A stretch of DNA of 64,000 bases from an uncultured Candidatus Actinomarina sp. (GTDB lineage: Bacteria; Actinomycetota; Acidimicrobiia; Actinomarinales; Actinomarinaceae), in NCBI GenBank assembly GCA_902625455.1, contig CACOBL010000001.1, positions 244,191 to 308,190 of the forward strand. The letters run 5' to 3'. A program made the position numbers and the translations under genes. Each line of letters starts with the position of its first letter. The stretch's first letter is position 1. This document shows, piece by piece, positions 3,102 to 53,199 of the stretch. The notes below the pieces were generated by a model. That model had not been told where the DNA came from. It made no database searches and saw only the letters and a program-made list of their open reading frames with translations.

Positions 3102-4025
3102 ATGGATATATTAATTCTCATATTCGGATTTATAGTAGGGTTAATTTTTTTAGTAAAGGGTGCAGATGAAATGGTTGATTCTGCCGTACAGATCGCTTTA
3201 AAATTCAAAATTCCCAGTTCAATCATAGGTGCAACATTTATTGGATTTGGTACATCTGCACCAGAATTGTTTGCAAGTACGGGAGCTGCATTAAATGGAG
3301 ATTTAGATCTGGGAATTGGAAATATAGTAGGTTCAAATATTGCAAATTCATTACTTGTAGTAGCAGTTTTGTATCTTGCAATTCCAAAAGACTTTGATAA
3401 GAAAATTAAGCTCAATCAACTTAGTCCAGTTTGGATGGCAATCCTCACCACTGTATTTGTATCAACTTATGTTCTTTTCAGTAGCTTTCCACTGTACTTA
3501 GGAATTGTGCTGTTAGTTTTGACAATTTATGTAGTTTACAAAATGGTAAGTACTGACAGTGTTGAAGAAGAAGATTTCAAAACAGAAGAAAAAAAATACG
3601 TGTGGCTAAGGGGATTCCTTTCTTTAGCCGCAACTCTTTATGGAAGTCAATTAGTGGTTGATAATGCAGTTAAGATAGCAGAAACGTTTGGCGTTTCATC
3701 TTTGGTAATAGGTTCAACAATTATTGCAATTGGTACTAGTCTTCCGGAAGTTGCTGGAACAATAGCAGCGGCGAGGATGAGAAAGCCTGACATTGTTTTT
3801 GGAAATATTTTTGGTTCAAATCTTTTTAATATTGGATTAGTTGGCGGTGTGGCAATTTCAATAAGCCCTGGAAATATTCTTTCAAGAATTGATTACCAGC
3901 TATTTATGATGTATTTTGTTTCTTTTCTTGTAATATTTTTATCAAGAAATGTCATTAAAAGAAACATTGTTATTGGGTATTCTTTTATAGCTTTTTATCT
4001 TTTATTTATTATTAGTCTTTTTTAA
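3102..4025 (+). CDS. CaCA-family Na+/Ca2+ (K+-dependent) exchanger, YrbG-like
   Basis: Two alpha-repeats, GFGTSAPELFAS and AIGTSLPEVAGT, in a polytopic membrane protein. The start was moved to the internal ATG (MDILIL) to avoid overlap with the upstream gene. Confidence 0.75.
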   Translation: MDILILIFGFIVGLIFLVKGADEMVDSAVQIALKFKIPSSIIGATFIGFGTSAPELFASTGAALNGDLDLGIGNIVGSNIANSLLVVAVLYLAIPKDFDKKIKLNQLSPVWMAILTTVFVSTYVLFSSFPLYLGIVLLVLTIYVVYKMVSTDSVEEEDFKTEEKKYVWLRGFLSLAATLYGSQLVVDNAVKIAETFGVSSLVIGSTIIAIGTSLPEVAGTIAAARMRKPDIVFGNIFGSNLFNIGLVGGVAISISPGNILSRIDYQLFMMYFVSFLVIFLSRNVIKRNIVIGYSFIAFYLLFIISLF

Positions 4026-4845
4026 TATTTTTATTCTTTAAGAAAAAGATTAATCCTAAAAATGCAAGAAGGGCTCCTCCAATTTGATTCCAGGTAAATA
4101 TACCAATCGTAGAATCGCCCATTCCAAATCTTAAAGTGTCTAGAAATGCTCTTTGAGTTCCATACCATACTGCCCATAAACCAATCCAAGATCCTTTTCC
4201 AAACTCATAACGATTTTGCAACGATCTAAAAATAAAGAAAACAATTAATGCAAGGATTAAGTCGTAAAGTGCGACGTGATGGTATGTTCCACAAGTTAAC
4301 AGTGGCTCCGTACATTCTAAAGAATTGTGTTGCGGGGCAACGTCATATCCCGGCTTAATCTCATAACCTAAAAAGAAGCTTGTTTCTCTTCCTAAATGTT
4401 CGACGATAGCCAGATCGCCAATTCTTCCAATAACAGTTCCCAGTATTAATCCTGTGGCAGCGTAATCTCCATATTGTTTAAAATCTTCTTTATTAAAAAT
4501 ACTAATTTTAAGATATGCAGCAATAATTCCTCCTGCCATACCACCCATAATTGAATAGCTACCAGCTAATGTAAAAATATCGCCTAATCCATACCCTGGG
4601 TTGGCATACCATTGTGCTGGTATAGTGAAGAATCTTGCTCCAAGAATTGCGCCAAAAATAGCCCAAGTAAGCGCCTCAGAAAATAAAATAGCGTTTGCTC
4701 CATCTTTTTCCGAAAGTTTTAAAGCATGACTAGCTCCAAAATAGAATCCAACAGCGGCAAAAACGCCATGTAAAGAAAGGAATACAGGCCCTACTTTTGT
4801 AATTGGTATTGGAGGATAGGTTATTGAAAAAAATATTTCTTCCAT
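4012..4845 (-). CDS. lgt: Prolipoprotein diacylglyceryl transferase
   Basis: Polytopic membrane protein with Lgt-like N-terminus (GPVFLSLHGV..VGF), a GGMAGGIIAAY glycine-rich segment and an HHVALYDL (HPxxLYE-like) motif. Confidence 0.7.
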   Translation of the reverse strand: MEEIFFSITYPPIPITKVGPVFLSLHGVFAAVGFYFGASHALKLSEKDGANAILFSEALTWAIFGAILGARFFTIPAQWYANPGYGLGDIFTLAGSYSIMGGMAGGIIAAYLKISIFNKEDFKQYGDYAATGLILGTVIGRIGDLAIVEHLGRETSFFLGYEIKPGYDVAPQHNSLECTEPLLTCGTYHHVALYDLILALIVFFIFRSLQNRYEFGKGSWIGLWAVWYGTQRAFLDTLRFGMGDSTIGIFTWNQIGGALLAFLGLIFFLKNKNIKKD

Positions 4846-5799: not shown

Positions 5800-6819
5800 A
5801 TGCTGATAAAAAAAGTTTTTAAATTAAAAAATTTAAGATATGTATTTTTCTTATTTATATATTCATGTATTGAAAATGCTCCTCTAGACTCTTTAAGTCC
5901 TGAAGGACCATATGCTAGATCAATTGATGAATTATTTTGGATTACTTTTTGGATTGCTGTTGTAATTTTTGCAATTGTTCAAGGTGCACTATTATTTTCA
6001 GTTTTTGTATATAAAGAAAAACCTGACTCTCCTGAACCAAAGCAAATTCATGGCAATACAAAGTTAGAAATCATCTGGACTGTAATACCAGTTCTAATTT
6101 TAGCTGCAATTGCTGTTCCTACAGTAAGGACGATCTTTGATCTAGCAAGAGAACCTGAAAATGCACTTAAAATAGAAGTAATTGGCCATCAGTGGTGGTT
6201 CGAATACAAATATCCTGATTATGGAATAACTACCGCAAATGTTTTGGTAATTCCGGCTGATAGACCAGTAAGACTTGAAATGTGGTCAAATGATGTTCTT
6301 CATAATTATTGGGTTCCAAAATTAAATGGAAAAAGATACCTGGTACCGGGACAAACAACGTATCTTAATCTTCATGCTGACTCACCAAATGAATTTTGGG
6401 CACAATGTGGAGAGTATTGTGGATTGAGTCATTCAAAAATGAGAGGGCGGGTTTTGTCATTGTCTGAAGAAGACTTTGCAGCATGGGTAAAAAATGAACA
6501 AAAAGACGCCACTGCTTTTAGCTCTGATGATTTATCTCTTGCAGCGGAGGGGCAACAAGTTTACTTAAATGCTGGATGTACACAGTGTCATGTAATTAAT
6601 GGTGTATGGGATGTGCAAGGAGATAGAATTGCGCCAAATTTAACACATTTCGCAATCAGAAATGTTTTTGCTGGAGCGGCATTAAAAAACAATCCTGAGA
6701 ATCTTACAAAATGGCTTGCAAATCCCGCCGAAATTAAACCAGGTACTTTTATGCCTAATCTAGAATTGACTGAATCGGAAATAAATGCTTTAATTGCGTA
6801 TTTGGAGACACTTAAATGA
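5800..6819 (+). CDS. ctaC: Cytochrome c oxidase subunit II with fused C-terminal cytochrome c domain (caa3-type)
   Basis: CuA site H..CGEYCGLSHSKM, plus a C-terminal CTQCH heme-c motif followed by a Met ligand region. Confidence 0.9.
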   Translation: MLIKKVFKLKNLRYVFFLFIYSCIENAPLDSLSPEGPYARSIDELFWITFWIAVVIFAIVQGALLFSVFVYKEKPDSPEPKQIHGNTKLEIIWTVIPVLILAAIAVPTVRTIFDLAREPENALKIEVIGHQWWFEYKYPDYGITTANVLVIPADRPVRLEMWSNDVLHNYWVPKLNGKRYLVPGQTTYLNLHADSPNEFWAQCGEYCGLSHSKMRGRVLSLSEEDFAAWVKNEQKDATAFSSDDLSLAAEGQQVYLNAGCTQCHVINGVWDVQGDRIAPNLTHFAIRNVFAGAALKNNPENLTKWLANPAEIKPGTFMPNLELTESEINALIAYLETLK

Positions 6820-8798
6820 CAAAGATAATTAAACCAGGAAAACAAAGCAGTATTTTTAGAAGACCTTCTTCAGAAACTGGAATTTGGAGCTGGATTACAA
6901 CTGTTGATCATAAAAGAATAGGAATAATGTATGGATATGCTGCATTCTTCTTTTTGTTAATTGGCGGTCTTGAAGCCCTTGTTCTTAGAATACAACTTTC
7001 TCAACCTGACAATAATTTTTTAACAGCTGCTGAATACAATGCAATGTTTACAATGCATGGGACTACCATGATCTTCCTAGCAATAATGCCTATAAGTGCT
7101 GCCTTCTTTAATTATTTACTACCTTTACAAATTGGTGCAAGAGATGTTGCTTTCCCTAGGCTCAATGCTTTATCTTTTTGGATATTTATTTTTGGTGGAG
7201 CTTTCTTATACTCTACTTTTATATTTGGAACCGCAGGTGCTCCTGAAGGAGGTTATCTTTCTGAGGAAGTTGGTTGGTTGGGATCCGCTCCTAACGGTGG
7301 TTGGTTTGGTTACCAACCAAATGCTGGAATGAAATATTCTCCTGGAACTGCAATGGATTATTGGGCAATAGGCCTTCAAATTTTAGGCATTGCTTCACTA
7401 ATTTCTGCTTTTAATTTTATAACAACAATTATTAATATGCGCACTAAAGGAATGAGATTCATGAGAATGCCTGTATTTACGTGGATGACTTTTGCTGTTT
7501 CCTTTCTATTAGCGTTTTCATTGCCAATTATTGCGATCGCACTTTTTTATGTAACTTTTGATAGAAAATTTGGTACTACTTTCTTTTTAACAGAAGGTGG
7601 TGGTGACCCAATCTTATGGCAGCATTTATTTTGGCTATTTGGTCATCCAGAAGTTTACATATTAATTTTGCCGGCTTTTGGAATAGTTTCAGAAGTTTTA
7701 CCAACATTTTCACGAAAACCACTTTTTGGCTATGCGGCAATAGTTTTTGCAGGTTTTGGAATCGCATTTATCGGTTTTGGTGTCTGGGCACACCACATGT
7801 TTGCTTCTGCAATAAGTCCTGTAGCACAAGCAGGGTTTGGATTATCAACTATGGTGATTGCTGTACCAACTGGAGTCAAAATATTCAATTGGTTAGGAAC
7901 AATTTGGGGAGGAAAGCTTAAATTAAATACTCCAATGTTATTTTCTCTAGGGTTTATAGGAATGTTTGTCATAGGTGGATTAAGTGGCGTAACTCACTCA
8001 GTAGTTCCTGCAGATACACAACAAACTGATACTTATTATGTAGTTGCACACTTTCACTATGTACTTTTTGGTGGTGCTCTTTTTGGTATTTTTTCTGGAC
8101 TTTATTATTGGTTTCCAAAAGTCTGGGGAAAAATGTATAACGAAACATTAGGAAAGCTACATTTTTGGACAATGCTTATTGGGTTTAACTTAACATTTGG
8201 TCCAATGCATTGGTTGGGTTTGCAAGGGCAGGTTCGAAGAACATGGGTATATGCCGAAGAAACAAACTTGCAATTTTGGAATATAGTCGTGACAATTGGA
8301 GCATTCATAATTGCTGTTTCAATTATTATTTTTATGATAAATTGGATTTTCTCAAAAAGAAAAGGTGAGAAAGCTCCTTTTGATCCATGGGATGCGAGAA
8401 CAATTGAGTGGACAATCCCTTCTCCTACACCTGAATGGAATTTCTCTAAAGCTCCGGAAGTTAAAGCACTAGATGATTTCTGGCATGCAAAATATGAAGA
8501 AGATGATGAAGGAAGGGCTGTAAGAAAAGAATCCGCTGAGCAATTATTGATAGAACTAGAAGAAGAGGGCTTAAATCCTACGGAAAATATTGTATTACCA
8601 AACCCGTCATACTTTCCGATTGTACTTGCTTCCGGATTACCATTTTTAGGCTATGCAGTTATTTATAAATCAATTCCACTTGCTTTAATAGGTTCGCTAC
8701 TTTTACTTATTGGCAGTTTCGGCTGGGGAACCGAGCCATTAGAAGAAGAAGTAGAAGATGAAGAAGATAATAATGAGGAATATCTAGATAATGTCTAA
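6816..8798 (+). CDS. ctaD: Cytochrome c oxidase subunit I (14-TM caa3-type, acidic C-terminal tail)
   Basis: Canonical heme-copper oxidase motifs WFFGHPEVYILILP and HHMF. 660 aa, with two extra C-terminal TM helices and an EEEVEDEEDNNEE tail. Confidence 0.92.
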   Translation: MTKIIKPGKQSSIFRRPSSETGIWSWITTVDHKRIGIMYGYAAFFFLLIGGLEALVLRIQLSQPDNNFLTAAEYNAMFTMHGTTMIFLAIMPISAAFFNYLLPLQIGARDVAFPRLNALSFWIFIFGGAFLYSTFIFGTAGAPEGGYLSEEVGWLGSAPNGGWFGYQPNAGMKYSPGTAMDYWAIGLQILGIASLISAFNFITTIINMRTKGMRFMRMPVFTWMTFAVSFLLAFSLPIIAIALFYVTFDRKFGTTFFLTEGGGDPILWQHLFWLFGHPEVYILILPAFGIVSEVLPTFSRKPLFGYAAIVFAGFGIAFIGFGVWAHHMFASAISPVAQAGFGLSTMVIAVPTGVKIFNWLGTIWGGKLKLNTPMLFSLGFIGMFVIGGLSGVTHSVVPADTQQTDTYYVVAHFHYVLFGGALFGIFSGLYYWFPKVWGKMYNETLGKLHFWTMLIGFNLTFGPMHWLGLQGQVRRTWVYAEETNLQFWNIVVTIGAFIIAVSIIIFMINWIFSKRKGEKAPFDPWDARTIEWTIPSPTPEWNFSKAPEVKALDDFWHAKYEEDDEGRAVRKESAEQLLIELEEEGLNPTENIVLPNPSYFPIVLASGLPFLGYAVIYKSIPLALIGSLLLLIGSFGWGTEPLEEEVEDEEDNNEEYLDNV

Positions 8799-9375
8799 TG
8801 CTCATGCTTATCCGCATGAACCTACTGGAGTCGAGACCAGAAAGTTGGGGATGTGGGTATTTCTTTCAACAGAAATTTTGTTTTTTGGAACATTAATAAC
8901 TACTTTTATGATTTTTAAAGGCAGAGAATTTCCTGGGATAAAACTTACTGATGTTTATGACATCCCATTCACTTCAATAAGTTCATTTATACTTTTAATG
9001 AGTTCGCTAACAATGGTTTTAGCTCACAATGCTCTTGAAGCAAAAGATCAAGAAAAAACTAGGGTTTGGTTACTTGCAACTGCAATGCTTGGTGCTGTAT
9101 TTTTAGCTGGACAAATTTATGAATTTACCGAGTTCTATCACAAGGGTTTTAAGCTTGATACGAATATATTTAGTTCAACTTTTTATGTGTTAACCGGATT
9201 TCATGGATTGCATGTATTTATAGGCGTTGTTCTTTTATTAGCTCTATGGGGTATTGGACAAAGGCAGCAAGGCTTGACTCTAGAGGGTGGAATGAATTTA
9301 GAATTTGTTGCACTTTATTGGCACTTTGTGGATATTGTTTGGATAGTGTTGTTTACAGTTGTGTATTTAATTTAA
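8791..9375 (+). CDS. ctaE: Cytochrome c oxidase subunit III (short form)
   Basis: Subunit III N-terminus RKLGMWVFLSTEILFFG and HFVDIVWIVLF. About 194 aa, like Bacillus CtaE. Confidence 0.85.
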   Translation: MSNAHAYPHEPTGVETRKLGMWVFLSTEILFFGTLITTFMIFKGREFPGIKLTDVYDIPFTSISSFILLMSSLTMVLAHNALEAKDQEKTRVWLLATAMLGAVFLAGQIYEFTEFYHKGFKLDTNIFSSTFYVLTGFHGLHVFIGVVLLLALWGIGQRQQGLTLEGGMNLEFVALYWHFVDIVWIVLFTVVYLI

Positions 9376-9376
9376 A

Positions 9377-9676
9377 ATGTCAGAAGAACATATTAACCAC
9401 CCTACTCCAAAACGCTATGTACAAATTGCAATTATTCTTGGTGTTTTAACGGCAATTGAAATTGCACTTTACTATACAGAAGATCTTGTTGGAGCCTTCA
9501 CGGCCCCACTTTTAATAATCCTTGCTGTAGGAAAATTTGTAATTGTTGTTGGATGGTTCATGCATTTAAGGTTTGAGAGTAAAATGGTAAATAGATTTTT
9601 TGCTGGAGGAATGATTTTAGCTTTAATCTTATTTGCCATAGTAATGATTGAACGAGCATCGGCTAATTTTTCCTAA
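9377..9676 (+). CDS. ctaF: Cytochrome c oxidase subunit IV (Bacillus CtaF-type)
   Basis: 99 aa, 3 TM, immediately after ctaE. Family assignment from size, position and hydropathy. Confidence 0.6.
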   Translation: MSEEHINHPTPKRYVQIAIILGVLTAIEIALYYTEDLVGAFTAPLLIILAVGKFVIVVGWFMHLRFESKMVNRFFAGGMILALILFAIVMIERASANFS

Positions 9677-9679
9677 ATC

Positions 9680-10462
9680 ATGTTACAGAACTTACCTTGG
9701 CACCCTCATTATGATGTTTGGGCATTAATATTTACACTTATCATTTTTTTTGAGTTTTCTACAAAAAATGAAATTGTAAAGAAGAAGAAAAGAAGGCTAT
9801 GGTACTCAGGAATTTTTATACTTTGGATTTTTACTGATTACCCCATTCACGATATTGGTGAGAAATATTTATTTTCTGTTCATTCAGTTGAACATTTAGT
9901 TTTAGCATTAGTTGCACCACCCCTGCTGCTTTTAGGTATGCATAGAGAGATGAAAAAACTTATATCTGTTAAACCGTTTATTAACTTGCTTAAAATAACT
10001 TCTAAACCAATTATTGCTTTTTTTCTATTCAATGTTGTTATGGTAGGAATGCATTGGTCATCAGTGGTTAACTTAATGGTCACAAATACTTTATTTCATT
10101 TTCTTATTCATTCTGTAATGCTTTTAGTTTCTTTAAATATGTGGGTTCCAGTAATAGGATTCAACGAAGAAATAATGCCTTTAAATTCTGCAGCAAGAAT
10201 TGCGTACTTATTTTTGCAGTCATTATTACCTACTATACCTGCCAGTTTCCTCGCTTTTGGAACTGAGCCCCTCTATAGTGCATATCTAAATACAAATAGC
10301 ATTTTTAATATTTCAGTTATTAACGATCAGACTCTCGCAGGATTAATTTTAAAACTTGGAGGGGGAATTATATTGTGGATCTCGATTCTTGTAATTTGGA
10401 TGAGATGGTACCAAGATGAAAAAACGTTTGACGACGTAGTTAGAAACAACTCATCAGACTAG
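9680..10462 (+). CDS. ctaG: Caa3-type cytochrome oxidase assembly factor CtaG-like membrane protein
   Basis: 7-TM membrane protein directly downstream of ctaF (ctaCDEFG order as in B. subtilis). Assignment is by synteny and topology only. Confidence 0.45.
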   Translation: MLQNLPWHPHYDVWALIFTLIIFFEFSTKNEIVKKKKRRLWYSGIFILWIFTDYPIHDIGEKYLFSVHSVEHLVLALVAPPLLLLGMHREMKKLISVKPFINLLKITSKPIIAFFLFNVVMVGMHWSSVVNLMVTNTLFHFLIHSVMLLVSLNMWVPVIGFNEEIMPLNSAARIAYLFLQSLLPTIPASFLAFGTEPLYSAYLNTNSIFNISVINDQTLAGLILKLGGGIILWISILVIWMRWYQDEKTFDDVVRNNSSD

Positions 10463-46000: not shown

Positions 46001-47071
46001 TTACCTTGCTGGAGGTGCGTAAATTAATCCGCCTTCAGTCCAAGGTGCGTTTGCAGAACCTTCTCTATAAAGTCCGACAGGATTTAAGTTTTTAGAATAA
46101 ATCTCGTCATAGTTACCAACTTGCTTGATAACGTTATAGTAAGCATCGGCACTTAGGCCCATGACTGTTTGCAATTCGCCGTCGTTCTTGCCCATAAGTC
46201 TTCCCATTTCTGGATTTGCATCATAGTCAAAAGAATCAACGTTGGCTCTACCTACACCATATTCATCAGCGATGAATGTAGCATAAACAGTCCAGTTAAC
46301 GATGTCTGCCCATTGGCTATCGTTTGAACGATATACAGGACCAAGAGGTTCTTTAGAGATTGGTGATGCTGGGAAAATTGCCCAGTCATTCAATGCACCC
46401 TCTTTAGCTCTGTTACCAACAAGACCAGATCCGTCTGTGGTTACAAGGTCACACTCACCAGCTTTGAATTTCTCCATAGCTTCTGGGAATGCTTCAACTG
46501 TAACAAGCTCAATTGCTGCTCCAGCTAATCTTGCACCTTCAGTAATGTTCTTCTCTGTTGTTGTACCAGCATTAGTACATACTCTTAGACCATCAATGTC
46601 TTTAAGAGTAGAAGAAGCAGAAAGACCATCAGAGTTTCTACCCATTAACTGTTGTCCGTCATAATAGGTTGTTGGTCCAAAGTCGTTACCAAGTTCGGTA
46701 TCACGGCTTTGAGTCCATGTTGTATTTCTGATTAATAGGTCTACTTCACCAGCTGATAGGGCTGTGAATCTTTCAGCAGCTGTAAGTGCTGTAAATTCAA
46801 CCTTGCTGTAATCACCGAAAATTGCTGCTGCAACTGCATAACAGTAGTCAGCGTCAATTCCTGTTACAGAACCGTCAGCTTGTGTCTCAGAGAAAGCAAC
46901 TGCAGAACCTGAAACACCACACTTAAGGAATCCACGTTCTTGAACTTCTTCAAGTGTAGAACCATGATCGTGTTCATCTTCAACAGCAACTTCTTCTTCT
47001 GCTGCTTCAGTAGCACATGCAACTGCTACTAATGCAAATACAAGCAGATATACGATTGATTTTTTATTCAA
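46001..47071 (-). CDS. General L-amino-acid ABC transporter substrate-binding lipoprotein (AapJ-like)
   Basis: Signal peptide plus lipobox (LVAVACAT). Type-II SBP fold motifs. Noticeably higher GC than its neighbours. Confidence 0.75.
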   Translation of the reverse strand: MNKKSIVYLLVFALVAVACATEAAEEEVAVEDEHDHGSTLEEVQERGFLKCGVSGSAVAFSETQADGSVTGIDADYCYAVAAAIFGDYSKVEFTALTAAERFTALSAGEVDLLIRNTTWTQSRDTELGNDFGPTTYYDGQQLMGRNSDGLSASSTLKDIDGLRVCTNAGTTTEKNITEGARLAGAAIELVTVEAFPEAMEKFKAGECDLVTTDGSGLVGNRAKEGALNDWAIFPASPISKEPLGPVYRSNDSQWADIVNWTVYATFIADEYGVGRANVDSFDYDANPEMGRLMGKNDGELQTVMGLSADAYYNVIKQVGNYDEIYSKNLNPVGLYREGSANAPWTEGGLIYAPPAR

Positions 47072-50504: not shown

Positions 50505-51725
50505 ATGGATAATTTACTAAATTCAGATGCAACAACCGCCTTAATTCTATTAGGAATATTGATTGTTTCTTATGGAATTTTAAGATCTATTTTTTTTCCA
50601 GCTGTAAAAAAAATAGCAAATAGGACATCAACGTTTATTGATGACTTATTTCTTGACAAAAAATTTTTAAATAGGCTCTCTTATGTTGTAGTTTTTATCA
50701 TCTTCAATATATTGACCGCAACGCCAGAATTTAGTATTGACCTGTTTAGCAATGTTATTGTTTCGAGACTAATAGATGCTGCATTTGCACTATTAGTCGG
50801 ATTGACGATTTTAGAAGTCTTAAGCGTTTTCAATAAAATTTCTGAAAAAATTGATGTTTTAAAAAATAGACCAATAAAAGGTTATATACAAATTCTAAAA
50901 ATTATTATCTCTGCTTTTGTGGTGATTATTATTTTCGCAATCGTAACTGGACAGTCTGTAGCTTATTATATAAGTGGACTTGGCGCTCTTACAGCTGTTT
51001 TACTATTAGTTTTTCAAGATACAATTTTGTCATTTGTAGCCTCAGTTCAAATAGGTCAAAATGACATAATCAAAATTGGAGACTGGATTGAAGTTCCAGA
51101 ATTTGGAGCAGATGGTGATGTAGTAGACATTGCTCTTCACACTGTAAAAGTTCAAAACTGGGACAAAACAATAACAACAATTCCGACATCGAAAATTGTA
51201 AACACTTCTGTTAAGAATTGGAGGGCAATGTCTGAGTATGGTGGAAGAAGAATCAAAAGATCTTTACTTATAGATATTTCAAGTATCAAATTTTTAACGG
51301 CCAAAGAAATTTCGGAATTAGAAAAATTAGCACCATTAAAGGATTACATATCTTTTAAAAATAACGAATTATCTGAATTTAATGCTTCTATTGAAAATCC
51401 GGATAACAGTATTGAAACTAGAAAATTGACAAATATAGGTACATACAGAGCTTATGTTGAAAGCTATTTGAAACAAAATTCAAACTTAAATACTGAAACT
51501 ATGACATTCCTTGTTCGACAACTTCCATCCTCTCCAGAAGGTGTGCCATTAGAAATCTATACATTCACAAACACGACTGAGTGGGAGGCGTATGAAAAAA
51601 TTCAGTCTGATATCTTTGATCACTTATTTGCTATTCTTCCAAAATTTGGCCTAAGAGTTTTTCAAAATGGACTACTCGAAGCAGTAGCTGTTAAAAATTT
51701 ACCCTTTAATCAGTTGGACGAATAA
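50505..51725 (+). CDS. Small-conductance mechanosensitive channel (MscS family)
   Basis: MscS pore helix/beta domain (GALTAVLLLVFQDT..VQIGQNDIIKIGDWIEV..GDVVDIALHTVKVQNWDKTITTIPTSKIVN). Confidence 0.8.
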   Translation: MDNLLNSDATTALILLGILIVSYGILRSIFFPAVKKIANRTSTFIDDLFLDKKFLNRLSYVVVFIIFNILTATPEFSIDLFSNVIVSRLIDAAFALLVGLTILEVLSVFNKISEKIDVLKNRPIKGYIQILKIIISAFVVIIIFAIVTGQSVAYYISGLGALTAVLLLVFQDTILSFVASVQIGQNDIIKIGDWIEVPEFGADGDVVDIALHTVKVQNWDKTITTIPTSKIVNTSVKNWRAMSEYGGRRIKRSLLIDISSIKFLTAKEISELEKLAPLKDYISFKNNELSEFNASIENPDNSIETRKLTNIGTYRAYVESYLKQNSNLNTETMTFLVRQLPSSPEGVPLEIYTFTNTTEWEAYEKIQSDIFDHLFAILPKFGLRVFQNGLLEAVAVKNLPFNQLDE

Positions 51726-53199
51726 ATTTTTTACAAAAAACAATCAACCCAAATATTATAAAAATATAATTTAAATAATTTCCATATCTGCTGTAAGGAG
51801 TTTCTTTCTGTTTTGCCTCAAGTTTTTCAGTAAGTACTCCAGTTTCAAATAATTTAGTTTTAGCAATCACTTTTCCGTTATGATCTATAAATGCTGATTT
51901 ACCAGTTATAGCTGCATGTACAATTGGTCTCCCATTTGAAATTGCGTTTGCCCTAGACATTAATATAAATTGATCTGACATACCGCTTTCTCCATAACTT
52001 GCTTGGTTAGTAAGTATTACAACTAATTCTGCACCATCCTGAACACTATTCCTGATATATCTTTGGAACGATCCTTCAAATGAGATAACAGTTGAAATTT
52101 TCGTATTGTTTACCGTAAATATTTTTTGACCATCACCCCTAATCATGTCACGTGGAACAAGTGCTAAAGGAGGAATCCAATCTAAATATTTTCTAAATGG
52201 AATATATTCTCCAAAGGGCACCGGATGCTGTTTTAAATATTGATCTATAATCTCACCATCTTTGTTTATAAAGACTCCATAATTTTCAAAATATTGATTT
52301 TGTATAGGTCTGTCTCCTCCTATTAAAAAATATGAATCTAGCCTCAAAGCTTCGGTAGCAATATCATTTTGAACTCTACTATGTATTCCAGGATCATTAT
52401 TAAATCCTGTTGAGCTCTCAGGCCAAACTACAAGATCAAAATTTCCATCAAGAGATTGTGTCTGAGTTAAATGGCTATCGTATATTTTTTGTCTTTCATT
52501 GGCACATCTATTTTTGGCACCAGGACACGGGCTGTTTCCTTGAATGATTGCGATGTTTAGTTCTGATGCTTCTAATTGAGCATCGTCGTAATCAGTATTA
52601 ATAATTACAAGACTGAAAACGTATATTGAAAAAACTACTAATGAAAATATCATATAATTTTTAATATAATTTTTTTGTTTGTTTTTTGAAAAGACACCAA
52701 GTGCAATTATTAAAGAAAAGGATTGTAGTAAAAGAGAAGATCCTGTTGGTCCAAAGCCTTCAAAAGATAAACGAGCATCTAGCATGAACCAACTGTCTAT
52801 AGGACCAGTTAATAAAACCGTTGAGGGAAAACCCCAAGGAAAACCGCCAAATGGAAAATATGCTCTAATCAAATCAAAAATTGCTATAACTGACAACAAT
52901 ACAAAGAAATTGTTATCAGATTTTGTATTTAGATAAGAAAACAGTTTTGCAAATATTCCATACATGAATCCCATTAAAATTGTTAATGGAATCCATGCTT
53001 CAAGCCCTATTGATTGAATTCCTAATAAAATTACACCATATGTAACGCTCCCAAATATAAATCCTGTTAAAAAAGATTTTTCATGTAGTAACAATGAATA
53101 GTAAAAAAAATACAGTGCTGGAAAAATTAAGAACCAGAAGTCAAAAGGGGGGAAGCTTAAAAAATATAATACCCCTCCCAAGAATGCTCTTATAAACAT
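51706..53199 (-). CDS. lnt: Apolipoprotein N-acyltransferase (Lnt) homolog with catalytic Cys replaced by Ser
   Basis: Lnt N-terminal TM block (LSFPPFDFWFL), CN-hydrolase Glu (VVWPESS) and Lys (KYLKQHPVPFGEYIPF). The expected AICYE segment reads VISFEGSF, and no Cys occurs in the surrounding 100 aa. Confidence 0.65.
   Translation of the reverse strand: MFIRAFLGGVLYFLSFPPFDFWFLIFPALYFFYYSLLLHEKSFLTGFIFGSVTYGVILLGIQSIGLEAWIPLTILMGFMYGIFAKLFSYLNTKSDNNFFVLLSVIAIFDLIRAYFPFGGFPWGFPSTVLLTGPIDSWFMLDARLSFEGFGPTGSSLLLQSFSLIIALGVFSKNKQKNYIKNYMIFSLVVFSIYVFSLVIINTDYDDAQLEASELNIAIIQGNSPCPGAKNRCANERQKIYDSHLTQTQSLDGNFDLVVWPESSTGFNNDPGIHSRVQNDIATEALRLDSYFLIGGDRPIQNQYFENYGVFINKDGEIIDQYLKQHPVPFGEYIPFRKYLDWIPPLALVPRDMIRGDGQKIFTVNNTKISTVISFEGSFQRYIRNSVQDGAELVVILTNQASYGESGMSDQFILMSRANAISNGRPIVHAAITGKSAFIDHNGKVIAKTKLFETGVLTEKLEAKQKETPYSRYGNYLNYIFIIFGLIVFCKKFIRPTD

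Follow-up and report, generated by a model that had tools for sequence, protein, structure and literature searches.

A 64,000-nucleotide stretch of an uncultured Candidatus Actinomarina sp. (positions 244,191 to 308,190 of contig CACOBL010000001.1, assembly GCA_902625455.1; hereafter the window, with a GC content of ~33%) carries, at 51706..53199 on its minus strand, a gene for a homolog of apolipoprotein N-acyltransferase (Lnt) in which a serine stands at the position of the catalytic cysteine. A Glu-Lys-Cys triad is the defining feature of the nitrilase superfamily, to which Lnt belongs, and in the textbook mechanism of Lnt the reaction proceeds through a thioester intermediate. Our comparisons indicate that the protein (the query in what follows) is a selectively maintained member of a large serine-type branch of the Lnt family. 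On balance, we favor the view that it is an active Lnt-family acyltransferase that would use Ser373 as its nucleophile, with the lipoprotein N-terminus as the leading candidate acceptor. No natural serine nucleophile is known to us in the nitrilase superfamily, and a serine-type Lnt, if functional, would provide the first. The gene and the parts of its product that matter for this argument are as follows.

51706..53199, minus strand: serine-type Lnt homolog, a complete open reading frame with ATG start and TAA stop (497 amino acids plus stop)
52585..53199, minus strand: N-terminal membrane domain LNT_N, residues 1-205, with seven predicted helices (PF20154 and AlphaFold2)
51814..52566, minus strand: extracytoplasmic CN-hydrolase (nitrilase-like) domain, residues 212-462 (PF00795 and AlphaFold2)
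52081..52083, minus strand: Ser373 codon, TCA, where E. coli Lnt has its Cys387 nucleophile (alignment and model)
52417..52419, minus strand: Glu261 codon, GAG, in the WPE motif, equivalent to the E. coli catalytic base E267 (alignment)
52231..52233, minus strand: Lys323 codon, AAA, equivalent to E. coli K335 (alignment)
52207..52209, minus strand: Glu331 codon, GAA, in VPFGEY, equivalent to E. coli E343 (alignment)
52075..52080, minus strand: Phe374-Glu375, equivalent to E. coli Y388-E389, the essential pair after the nucleophile (alignment)
52504..52527, minus strand: Cys225-x6-Cys232 pair in an extracytoplasmic loop aligned with the E. coli W237 region (alignment)
51721..51777, minus strand: C-terminal transmembrane helix, residues 475-493 (AlphaFold2 helix, pairing with the last helix of E. 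coli Lnt)

Two Pfam families match the open reading frame, LNT_N (PF20154) over residues 9-137 and CN_hydrolase (PF00795) over residues 216-461 (E 3.9e-18), and its product scores 178.3 bits against the NCBIfam equivalog TIGR00546 'lnt' (cutoff 132.9; residues 67-443 of the query). When PDB sequences were searched with phmmer, the query aligned end to end with E. coli Lnt, with 'tvISFEgs' opposite 'aaI[C/S]YEii' of the E. coli chains, and the top-scoring entry was 5vrh, the engineered E. coli C387S mutant. Counting along this chain (tag offset +2) pairs S373, K323, E331 and E375 of the query with positions 387, K335, E343 and E389, respectively; E261, within DLVVWPESS, is equivalent to E267, and Y388 is kept as the aromatic F374. 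Both E261 and K323, the latter lying in QYLKQHPVPFGEYIPF, are aligned by HMMER and MAFFT. An earlier note on this DNA, made by reading the letters alone, had anchored its alignment on the same Glu (in VVWPESS) and Lys; both anchors hold, with one letter corrected, as the sequence around the lysine reads QYLKQ and not KYLKQ. Besides E343, Y388 and E389, W237 is essential in E. coli. This Trp is not kept in the query, its place being taken by G227, and it is not conserved in the functional mycobacterial Lnt either, where it is Val (PMC3850990).

The central claim of the earlier note, that Ser replaces the catalytic Cys, is borne out in that HMMER, MAFFT and the predicted secondary structure all put Ser373 at this position. 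The query has only three cysteines (C225, C232 and C489), of which the closest to Ser373 are C489, 116 residues away, and C232, 141 residues away; the companion statement that no Cys is nearby therefore also stands, there being none within 116 residues. The alignments and the structural prediction together confirm that the query is an Lnt homolog whose nucleophile position is occupied by Ser, with no alternative Cys.

The predicted structure places this serine within an otherwise typical Lnt fold. AlphaFold2, run with a 30-sequence alignment, returned a model with a mean predicted local distance difference test score of 90.8 and a predicted template modeling score of 0.92, in which the N-terminal helices span residues 2-14, 22-37, 42-59, 66-93, 98-114, 137-170 and 175-202, the CN-hydrolase domain shows a strand/helix pattern of the alpha-beta-beta-alpha type, and a C-terminal helix covers residues 475-493. 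All 24 of the top 24 PDB matches found by Foldseek were Lnt chains, including those of E. coli and P. aeruginosa, with template modeling scores of 0.74-0.82 over ~525 aligned columns at a sequence identity of ~20%. In the model, Ser373 opens a helix (residues 373-377) straight after a strand (residues 366-372), which is the nucleophile elbow typical of the fold. The full Lnt architecture is thus present, comprising a helical membrane domain, a CN-hydrolase domain and a last transmembrane helix.

The serine is also genuine and is under selection. I-S-F-E-G was read in 120/120 close homologs with 81-97% identity to the query; these come from marine metagenomes and from assemblies presumed, from their accession series, to be single-cell or metagenome-assembled, and one cluster alone has 1,350 members. 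The TCA codon at the site is identical in four independent assemblies, and its conversion to TGY requires two substitutions. Across 34 serine-type loci and the window, the serine is encoded by TCC (12), TCG (10), TCA (8), TCT (2) and AGC (4), and both AGC and TCN codons occur inside the query's own clade. The use of both serine codon families indicates that selection keeps the amino acid and not the codon. Between the window copy and its counterpart on a related contig (L001), the ratio of nonsynonymous to synonymous substitution rates (dN/dS) is 0.14. The earlier note had named a Cys brought to light by a corrected alignment, or an error at the codon, as findings that would overturn its reading; we examined both and found neither. 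That the serine is an artefact, be it an error of sequencing or assembly or a misaligned site that conceals a Cys, can be set aside with near certainty in view of the two-change codon, the four assemblies, the 120 of 120 homologs and the agreement of HMMER, MAFFT and the predicted structure.

The residues around the nucleophile were compared in 49 serine-type and 74 cysteine-type full-length representatives. E261, K323 and E331 are invariant in both groups (49/49 and 74/74), E375 is kept in 49/49 serine-type and 71/74 cysteine-type proteins, and residue 374 is aromatic (F, Y or W) across the compared representatives, leaving the catalytic site other than the nucleophile 96-100% conserved in both groups. 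Beyond the catalytic residues, Q220, N306, Y321, the VPFGE..P motif, D351, G355, G433 and G442 are kept in at least 90% of each group. Activity is favored because the whole catalytic apparatus besides the nucleophile has been held, which is not expected of a dead enzyme.

Serine-type proteins are not the rarity that the earlier note had taken them for. A HMMER search of 1.84 billion cluster representatives (50%-identity clusters) returned 16,698 relatives, of which the best 150 were taken; 146 of these span the nucleophile column, with Ser in 67 and Cys in 79, and the serine column shows no drift to Ala, Gly or Thr. The suggestion of the same note to check whether relatives share the Ser was thereby followed, with a positive answer among both the close homologs and the nearest representatives. 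We also scanned species-representative genomes with the pattern VPFGE[YF][VI]PxR, which gave at least 80 loci; relatives of the query with >40% identity were not among the matches listed. Of the loci listed, records titled Actinomycetota or unclassified supplied 79 and an Omnitrophota metagenome-assembled genome (MAG) supplied one. Serine-type loci were found in 'Acidimicrobiia bacterium' MAGs (29-39% identity to the query), Acidimicrobiales, Ilumatobacteraceae, Bifidobacterium breve and a marine single-cell genome, while cysteine-type loci were found in Streptomyces, Kitasatospora, Kribbella, Nocardioidaceae, Nanopelagicales and others. The 19 listed loci titled Acidimicrobiia, or a family within it, comprise 16 of the serine type and 3 of the cysteine type; Ser is the usual state in these Acidimicrobiia relatives. 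Both states also occur among the Bifidobacteriaceae, where the B. breve locus (L070) is serine-type and reads TPISWE, and an uncultured Bifidobacteriaceae MAG (L035) is cysteine-type, reads SVICFE and lies in a DEAD-helicase/GcvP neighborhood.

Neighbor-joining trees, with 100 bootstrap replicates on a 70-sequence subset, divide the serine-type proteins into several groups. Clade A, which contains the query, is recovered in 77% of replicates together with a single cysteine-type protein, P0132, that is sister to it or nested within it; the locus of P0132 shares synteny with neither the serine-type nor the cysteine-type kind of locus. Clade B (84%) holds Acidimicrobiales, Ilumatobacteraceae, B. 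breve and others, and a third, small clade (100%; L025, P0141, P0145 and P0157) sits among cysteine-type proteins. A further serine group (P0200, P0185 and P0195) appears in trees without a bootstrap test, and A, B and the P0189/P0173 pair come together in only 20% of replicates. The trees thus point to at least two well-supported, separate actinobacterial serine-type clades, and since the serine clades do not form one group, the Cys/Ser state has changed several times.

We propose that Ser373 would accept the sn-1 acyl chain of a membrane phospholipid, giving an O-acyl (oxyester) enzyme intermediate instead of a thioester, and that the chain would then be handed on to an acceptor at the outward-facing side of the membrane. 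As in the classical Lnt reaction, this acceptor would most likely be the free alpha-amino group of diacylglyceryl-Cys lipoproteins, with another envelope acceptor as the main alternative. Such serine chemistry is feasible, because the E. coli C387S mutant is reported to form an acyl-enzyme, although without detectable transfer (work cited in PMC3850990), and because later work grades C387S as of 'low activity' and C387A as 'inactive' (Smithers et al. 2023, PMC10313180). A possible, admittedly speculative, reason for the exchange is that in monoderm Actinobacteria the catalytic domain would face an oxidizing, disulfide-forming exterior in which a free thiol is a liability. C225 and C232, separated by six residues, probably form a disulfide, which would fit an oxidizing exterior where a free catalytic thiol is risky. 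Each of these two positions is Cys in 18/49 serine-type proteins (counted per position, not paired per sequence), and Cys is not among the three commonest residues at either in the cysteine-type group.

The window also offers components of the pathway in which an Lnt would act.

4012..4845, minus strand: Lgt-family gene, for the first lipoprotein lipidation enzyme, 47 kilobases (kb) from lnt (Pfam LGT, 85.9 bits against a cutoff of 24.9)
46001..47071, minus strand: candidate lipoprotein substrate, a solute-binding protein with signal peptide MNKKSIVYLLVFALVAVAC and a relaxed lipobox, 4.6 kb from lnt (regular-expression scan)

The presence of Lgt had been asserted in the earlier note; membership of the family is supported by the Pfam score, whereas the stricter equivalog TIGR00544 is not reached (60.5 bits against a cutoff of 118.9), which marks the product as a divergent Lgt homolog. 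Its gene adjoins that for heme o synthase and a cluster of cytochrome c oxidase genes (5800-10462). The lipobox expression, run over all open reading frames of the window, matched only 46001..47071, and the ortholog of its product on L001 belongs to Pfam SBP_bac_3. Substrates for lipoprotein N-acylation would exist in this organism, because the window holds both the Lgt-family gene and the lipobox-bearing solute-binding protein. An Rfam scan of the 64 kb gave no family at gathering score (no rRNA, riboswitch or other RNA family); a dedicated tRNA scan was not made.

Whether a second, cysteine-type enzyme accompanies the query bears directly on its function. The search for a second lnt suggested in the earlier note was carried out for the window, in which there is none, and none was seen within 8-10 kb of lnt in 84 loci. 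In addition, no genome appears twice among the 19 Acidimicrobiia loci listed, which is weak evidence on this question. We considered a low-GC, cysteine-type lnt-GT2 group (P0218/L085 and P0343/L089) as the second copy of the window's lineage and rejected it as Nanopelagicales-like by gene order and similarity: its BFN is 69% identical to that of a Nanopelagicales locus (L048) and 52% to that of an Acidimicrobiia locus (L071), and its MerR 64% and 49%, respectively. One member is labeled 'Actinomycetes bacterium' at NCBI, and the NCBI-sourced members come from bulk metagenome assemblies and not from single genomes. Loci of this group (L085, 34% GC; L089/L090, 36% GC) have the order dop-pup-pafA-pafBC...DEAD helicase-M24-lnt-GT2-gcvP, with no prcBA between pup and pafA; a GC content of 34-36% seems low for Nanopelagicales.

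The surroundings of the gene separate the two types further. In the window, the neighbors of lnt are TauE, a divergent M3 peptidase gene and a convergent MscS-family gene, with no adjacent GT2.

50505..51725, plus strand: convergent MscS-family gene, whose 3' end overlaps lnt by 20 nucleotides (51706-51725)

The same overlap geometry was also called in four related contigs (L001-L004). Elements of this gene order are common to the Acidimicrobiia loci (M3 peptidase in 6 loci, PAC2 in 3 and P-type ATPase in 3). Together with the GC content of ~33% and the marine metagenomes that supplied the close homologs, this points to a low-GC marine Acidimicrobiia lineage, probably Actinomarinales-like. A ppm1-like GT2 gene adjoins lnt at 36/54 cysteine-type loci and at 1/30 serine-type loci. 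The sole serine-type exception, at L025:6355-8402 (Actinomycetota MAG TH_ant_mag_195), reads VVISFE with a TCC codon, and occupies the canonical lnt-GT2...MerR-BFN slot that is held elsewhere by a cysteine-type lnt.

At the Acidimicrobiia loci of clade A, a divergent inositol monophosphatase family gene lies immediately upstream in 12/14, an acetyl-CoA synthetase gene (acs) lies immediately downstream of lnt in 6, and a divergent Amidohydro_3 gene is found upstream in 9. The order in L005-L018 is accordingly Amidohydro_3, inositol monophosphatase (divergent), serine-type lnt and acetyl-CoA synthetase (for example L012:5817-11393), and in 4 of the 6 loci with acs the two genes overlap or abut (-16 to +10 nucleotides); these neighbors may point to a link with inositol-lipid or acyl metabolism. 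None of the three (inositol monophosphatase, acetyl-CoA synthetase, Amidohydro_3) is among the genes of the window. Amidohydro_3 is also found directly upstream of cysteine-type lnt, there co-oriented with it, in 31 canonical loci, and in one of the cysteine-type loci (L048:6448-9497) the gene for this protein of ~540 amino acids overlaps lnt by 3 nucleotides. Its presence at both kinds of locus hints at a common ancestral neighborhood, and Amidohydro_3 seems so far to have gone unnoticed as part of the actinobacterial lnt-ppm neighborhood.

Several of these observations weigh against an active serine-type enzyme that acylates lipoproteins. The Cys-to-Ser state was already described in mycobacteria in 2013, and the query is one more member of this noted class: M. 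bovis BCG_2279c is an Lnt homolog with C387 naturally replaced by Ser and with E267, K335, E343 and E389 kept (Bruelle et al. 2013, PMC3850990). After deletion of the cysteine-type BCG_2070c, BCG_2279c, the sole natural serine-type homolog to have been studied genetically, did not N-acylate LprF, LpqH, LpqL or LppX (PMC3850990). Our literature search found no paper on a natural serine-nucleophile Lnt beyond this 2013 note, nor on the distribution of serine-type Lnt. The engineered E. coli C387S enzyme is weakly active at best, the scarcity of the GT2 partner at serine-type loci fits a separate role, and the putative binding pocket differs as well. Besides the nucleophile, group-specific columns are found at q399 (N/D in the cysteine type; A/E/T in the serine type), q223, q396 and q432 (Ser versus Thr), and several that would line the pocket (for example q399, q223 and q396) differ systematically between the two groups. 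The BCG_2279c result, the missing ppm1 linkage and these pocket residues favor a diverged role.

Such a role could be that of an active paralog with another job, an alternative that we consider less probable but that deserves serious attention. In that case an acyl-enzyme would still form from phospholipid, but the chain would go to something else than the lipoprotein N-terminus, possibly a different protein N-terminus, a glycolipid or an inositol lipid, or would mainly be released by hydrolysis, as with a phospholipase A1. A cysteine-type Lnt, if present, would then perform lipoprotein N-acylation. BCG_2279c provides a parallel, as it coexists with the functional BCG_2070c and cannot replace it (PMC3850990), and AatD sets a precedent as an Lnt paralog with another acceptor, N-acylating an N-terminal glycine (PMC7943197). 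The serine-type proteins moreover form old clades of their own with group-specific residues near the site, and a separate job is in keeping with the single GT2 neighbor among their loci. The inositol monophosphatase and acetyl-CoA synthetase genes of clade A could likewise hint at lipid or inositol metabolism, but they are absent from the window. Against a paralog stand the lack of a second lnt in the window and within 8-10 kb of lnt at the other loci and, weakly, the listed Acidimicrobiia genomes that each appear only once. L025 places a serine-type gene in the canonical lnt slot, and the grouping of the cysteine-type P0132 with the query's clade suggests that Cys and Ser can stand in for each other as nucleophile inside a single functional lineage. 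It is on account of this slot, this grouping and the absence, among the loci listed, of any Acidimicrobiia genome with both types (weak evidence) that we lean toward classical lipoprotein N-acylation.

A different possibility is that the protein is an inactive pseudoenzyme, retained because it serves structure or regulation or binds a substrate, for instance in partnership with a second envelope enzyme. The mycobacterial protein again provides a basis for this idea: besides its failure with the four lipoproteins, a frameshift divides its M. tuberculosis H37Rv counterpart into Rv2262c and Rv2261c, and the authors who described it left open a contributive or conditional role (PMC3850990). Early work, cited in the same paper, had also found E. 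coli C387S to be without detectable Lnt activity, but the later grading noted above describes it as low in activity and not dead. We regard a pseudoenzyme as unlikely, given that E261, K323, E331, E375 and the aromatic position next to Ser373 are as conserved as in the cysteine type, that the serine is fixed across both codon families with none of the drift to Ala, Gly or Thr expected of a residue without a role, and that dN/dS is low in what is apparently a low-GC marine genome. A decayed gene is argued against by the same fixation, by the recurrence and persistence of the exchange and by a site conserved as in bona fide Lnt. The choice left by the earlier note, between an active Ser variant and an inactive or diverged paralog, can therefore be narrowed: site conservation, codon families and dN/dS speak against inactivity, while a diverged paralog keeps the support of BCG_2279c.

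The reading that we favor, an active acyltransferase using Ser373, can be extended into a bolder proposal, which we put forward only tentatively. According to it, serine-type proteins would be fully functional enzymes acting via Glu-Lys-Ser(+Glu) and an oxyester, the Cys-to-Ser change would have arisen independently several times in Actinobacteria, the serine-type protein would be the sole lipoprotein N-acyltransferase in many Acidimicrobiia, including the window's apparent lineage of abundant, low-GC marine bacteria, and the exchange would be adaptive in that it removes an oxidation-prone surface thiol.

For the locus in the window alone this is a modest result; it is the class as a whole that is under-appreciated. 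Close to half of the Lnt proteins most similar to the query have Ser with the other catalytic residues intact, which suggests, for many proteins annotated as 'apolipoprotein N-acyltransferase', either an unstudied oxyester mechanism or a function unlike the annotation. Di- and tri-acylated lipoproteins are ligands of the Toll-like receptor pairs TLR2/6 and TLR2/1, respectively. The serine state bears on predicting which of the two forms is made in Bifidobacterium and other Actinobacteria, and the B. breve copy bears in particular on the lipoprotein acylation state in gut bifidobacteria. It also matters for the design of Lnt inhibitors aimed at the cysteine.

Among known systems, E. coli Lnt (CutE/Lnt; PDB 5N6H, 5VRG and 8B0K; TIGR00546; nitrilase superfamily) shares with the query its two-domain architecture and fold (template modeling score ~0.8), and its E267, K335, E343 and E389 are kept, as is Y388 in the form of an aromatic residue. 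The two differ in that Cys387 forms a thioester where the query has Ser373, in the W237 region, which is replaced in the query by the C-x6-C loop, and in overall sequence (identity ~20%). The canonical actinobacterial Lnt, Ppm2 (M. smegmatis MSMEG_3860, C. glutamicum NCgl1424 and the D1 domain of M. tuberculosis Rv2051c; PMC3460810), belongs to the same family and comes from the same phylum as the query, and Amidohydro_3 is found upstream at serine-type and cysteine-type loci alike, although in differing orientation. Ppm2 is nonetheless of the cysteine type, and its gene forms an operon with, or is fused to, that of the GT2 polyprenol-phosphate-mannose synthase Ppm1, whereas the query has Ser and no GT2 neighbor. 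The GT2 gene beside lnt at 36/54 cysteine-type loci matches the lnt(ppm2)-ppm1 operon published for Corynebacterium and Mycobacterium (PMC3460810), and fused lnt-GT2 proteins of ~700-770 amino acids occur among the relatives that we collected.

Like the query, BCG_2279c is an actinobacterial, natural serine-type Lnt homolog without ppm1 linkage, a likeness drawn from its published description. It has WGE and SYE where the query has WPE and SFE, and it coexists with a functional cysteine-type Lnt. A protein search from P0185, a serine-type protein with WGE and SYE that we guessed to be similar to BCG_2279c, gave no mycobacterial names among its matches. AatD, of the Aat system of enteroaggregative and enterotoxigenic E. 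coli (PMC7943197), is comparable as an Lnt-family paralog, but it keeps the Glu-Lys-Cys triad plus an extra Glu (E217, K278, C325 and E286), is proteobacterial and is encoded with a dedicated secretion system. Finally, the engineered E. coli Lnt C387S (PDB 5VRH and 8B0M) has a Glu-Lys-Ser site identical to that of the query. It is a laboratory mutant of low activity, used for trapping substrate complexes, whereas the natural serine-type proteins have had a long evolutionary time for tuning of the pocket.

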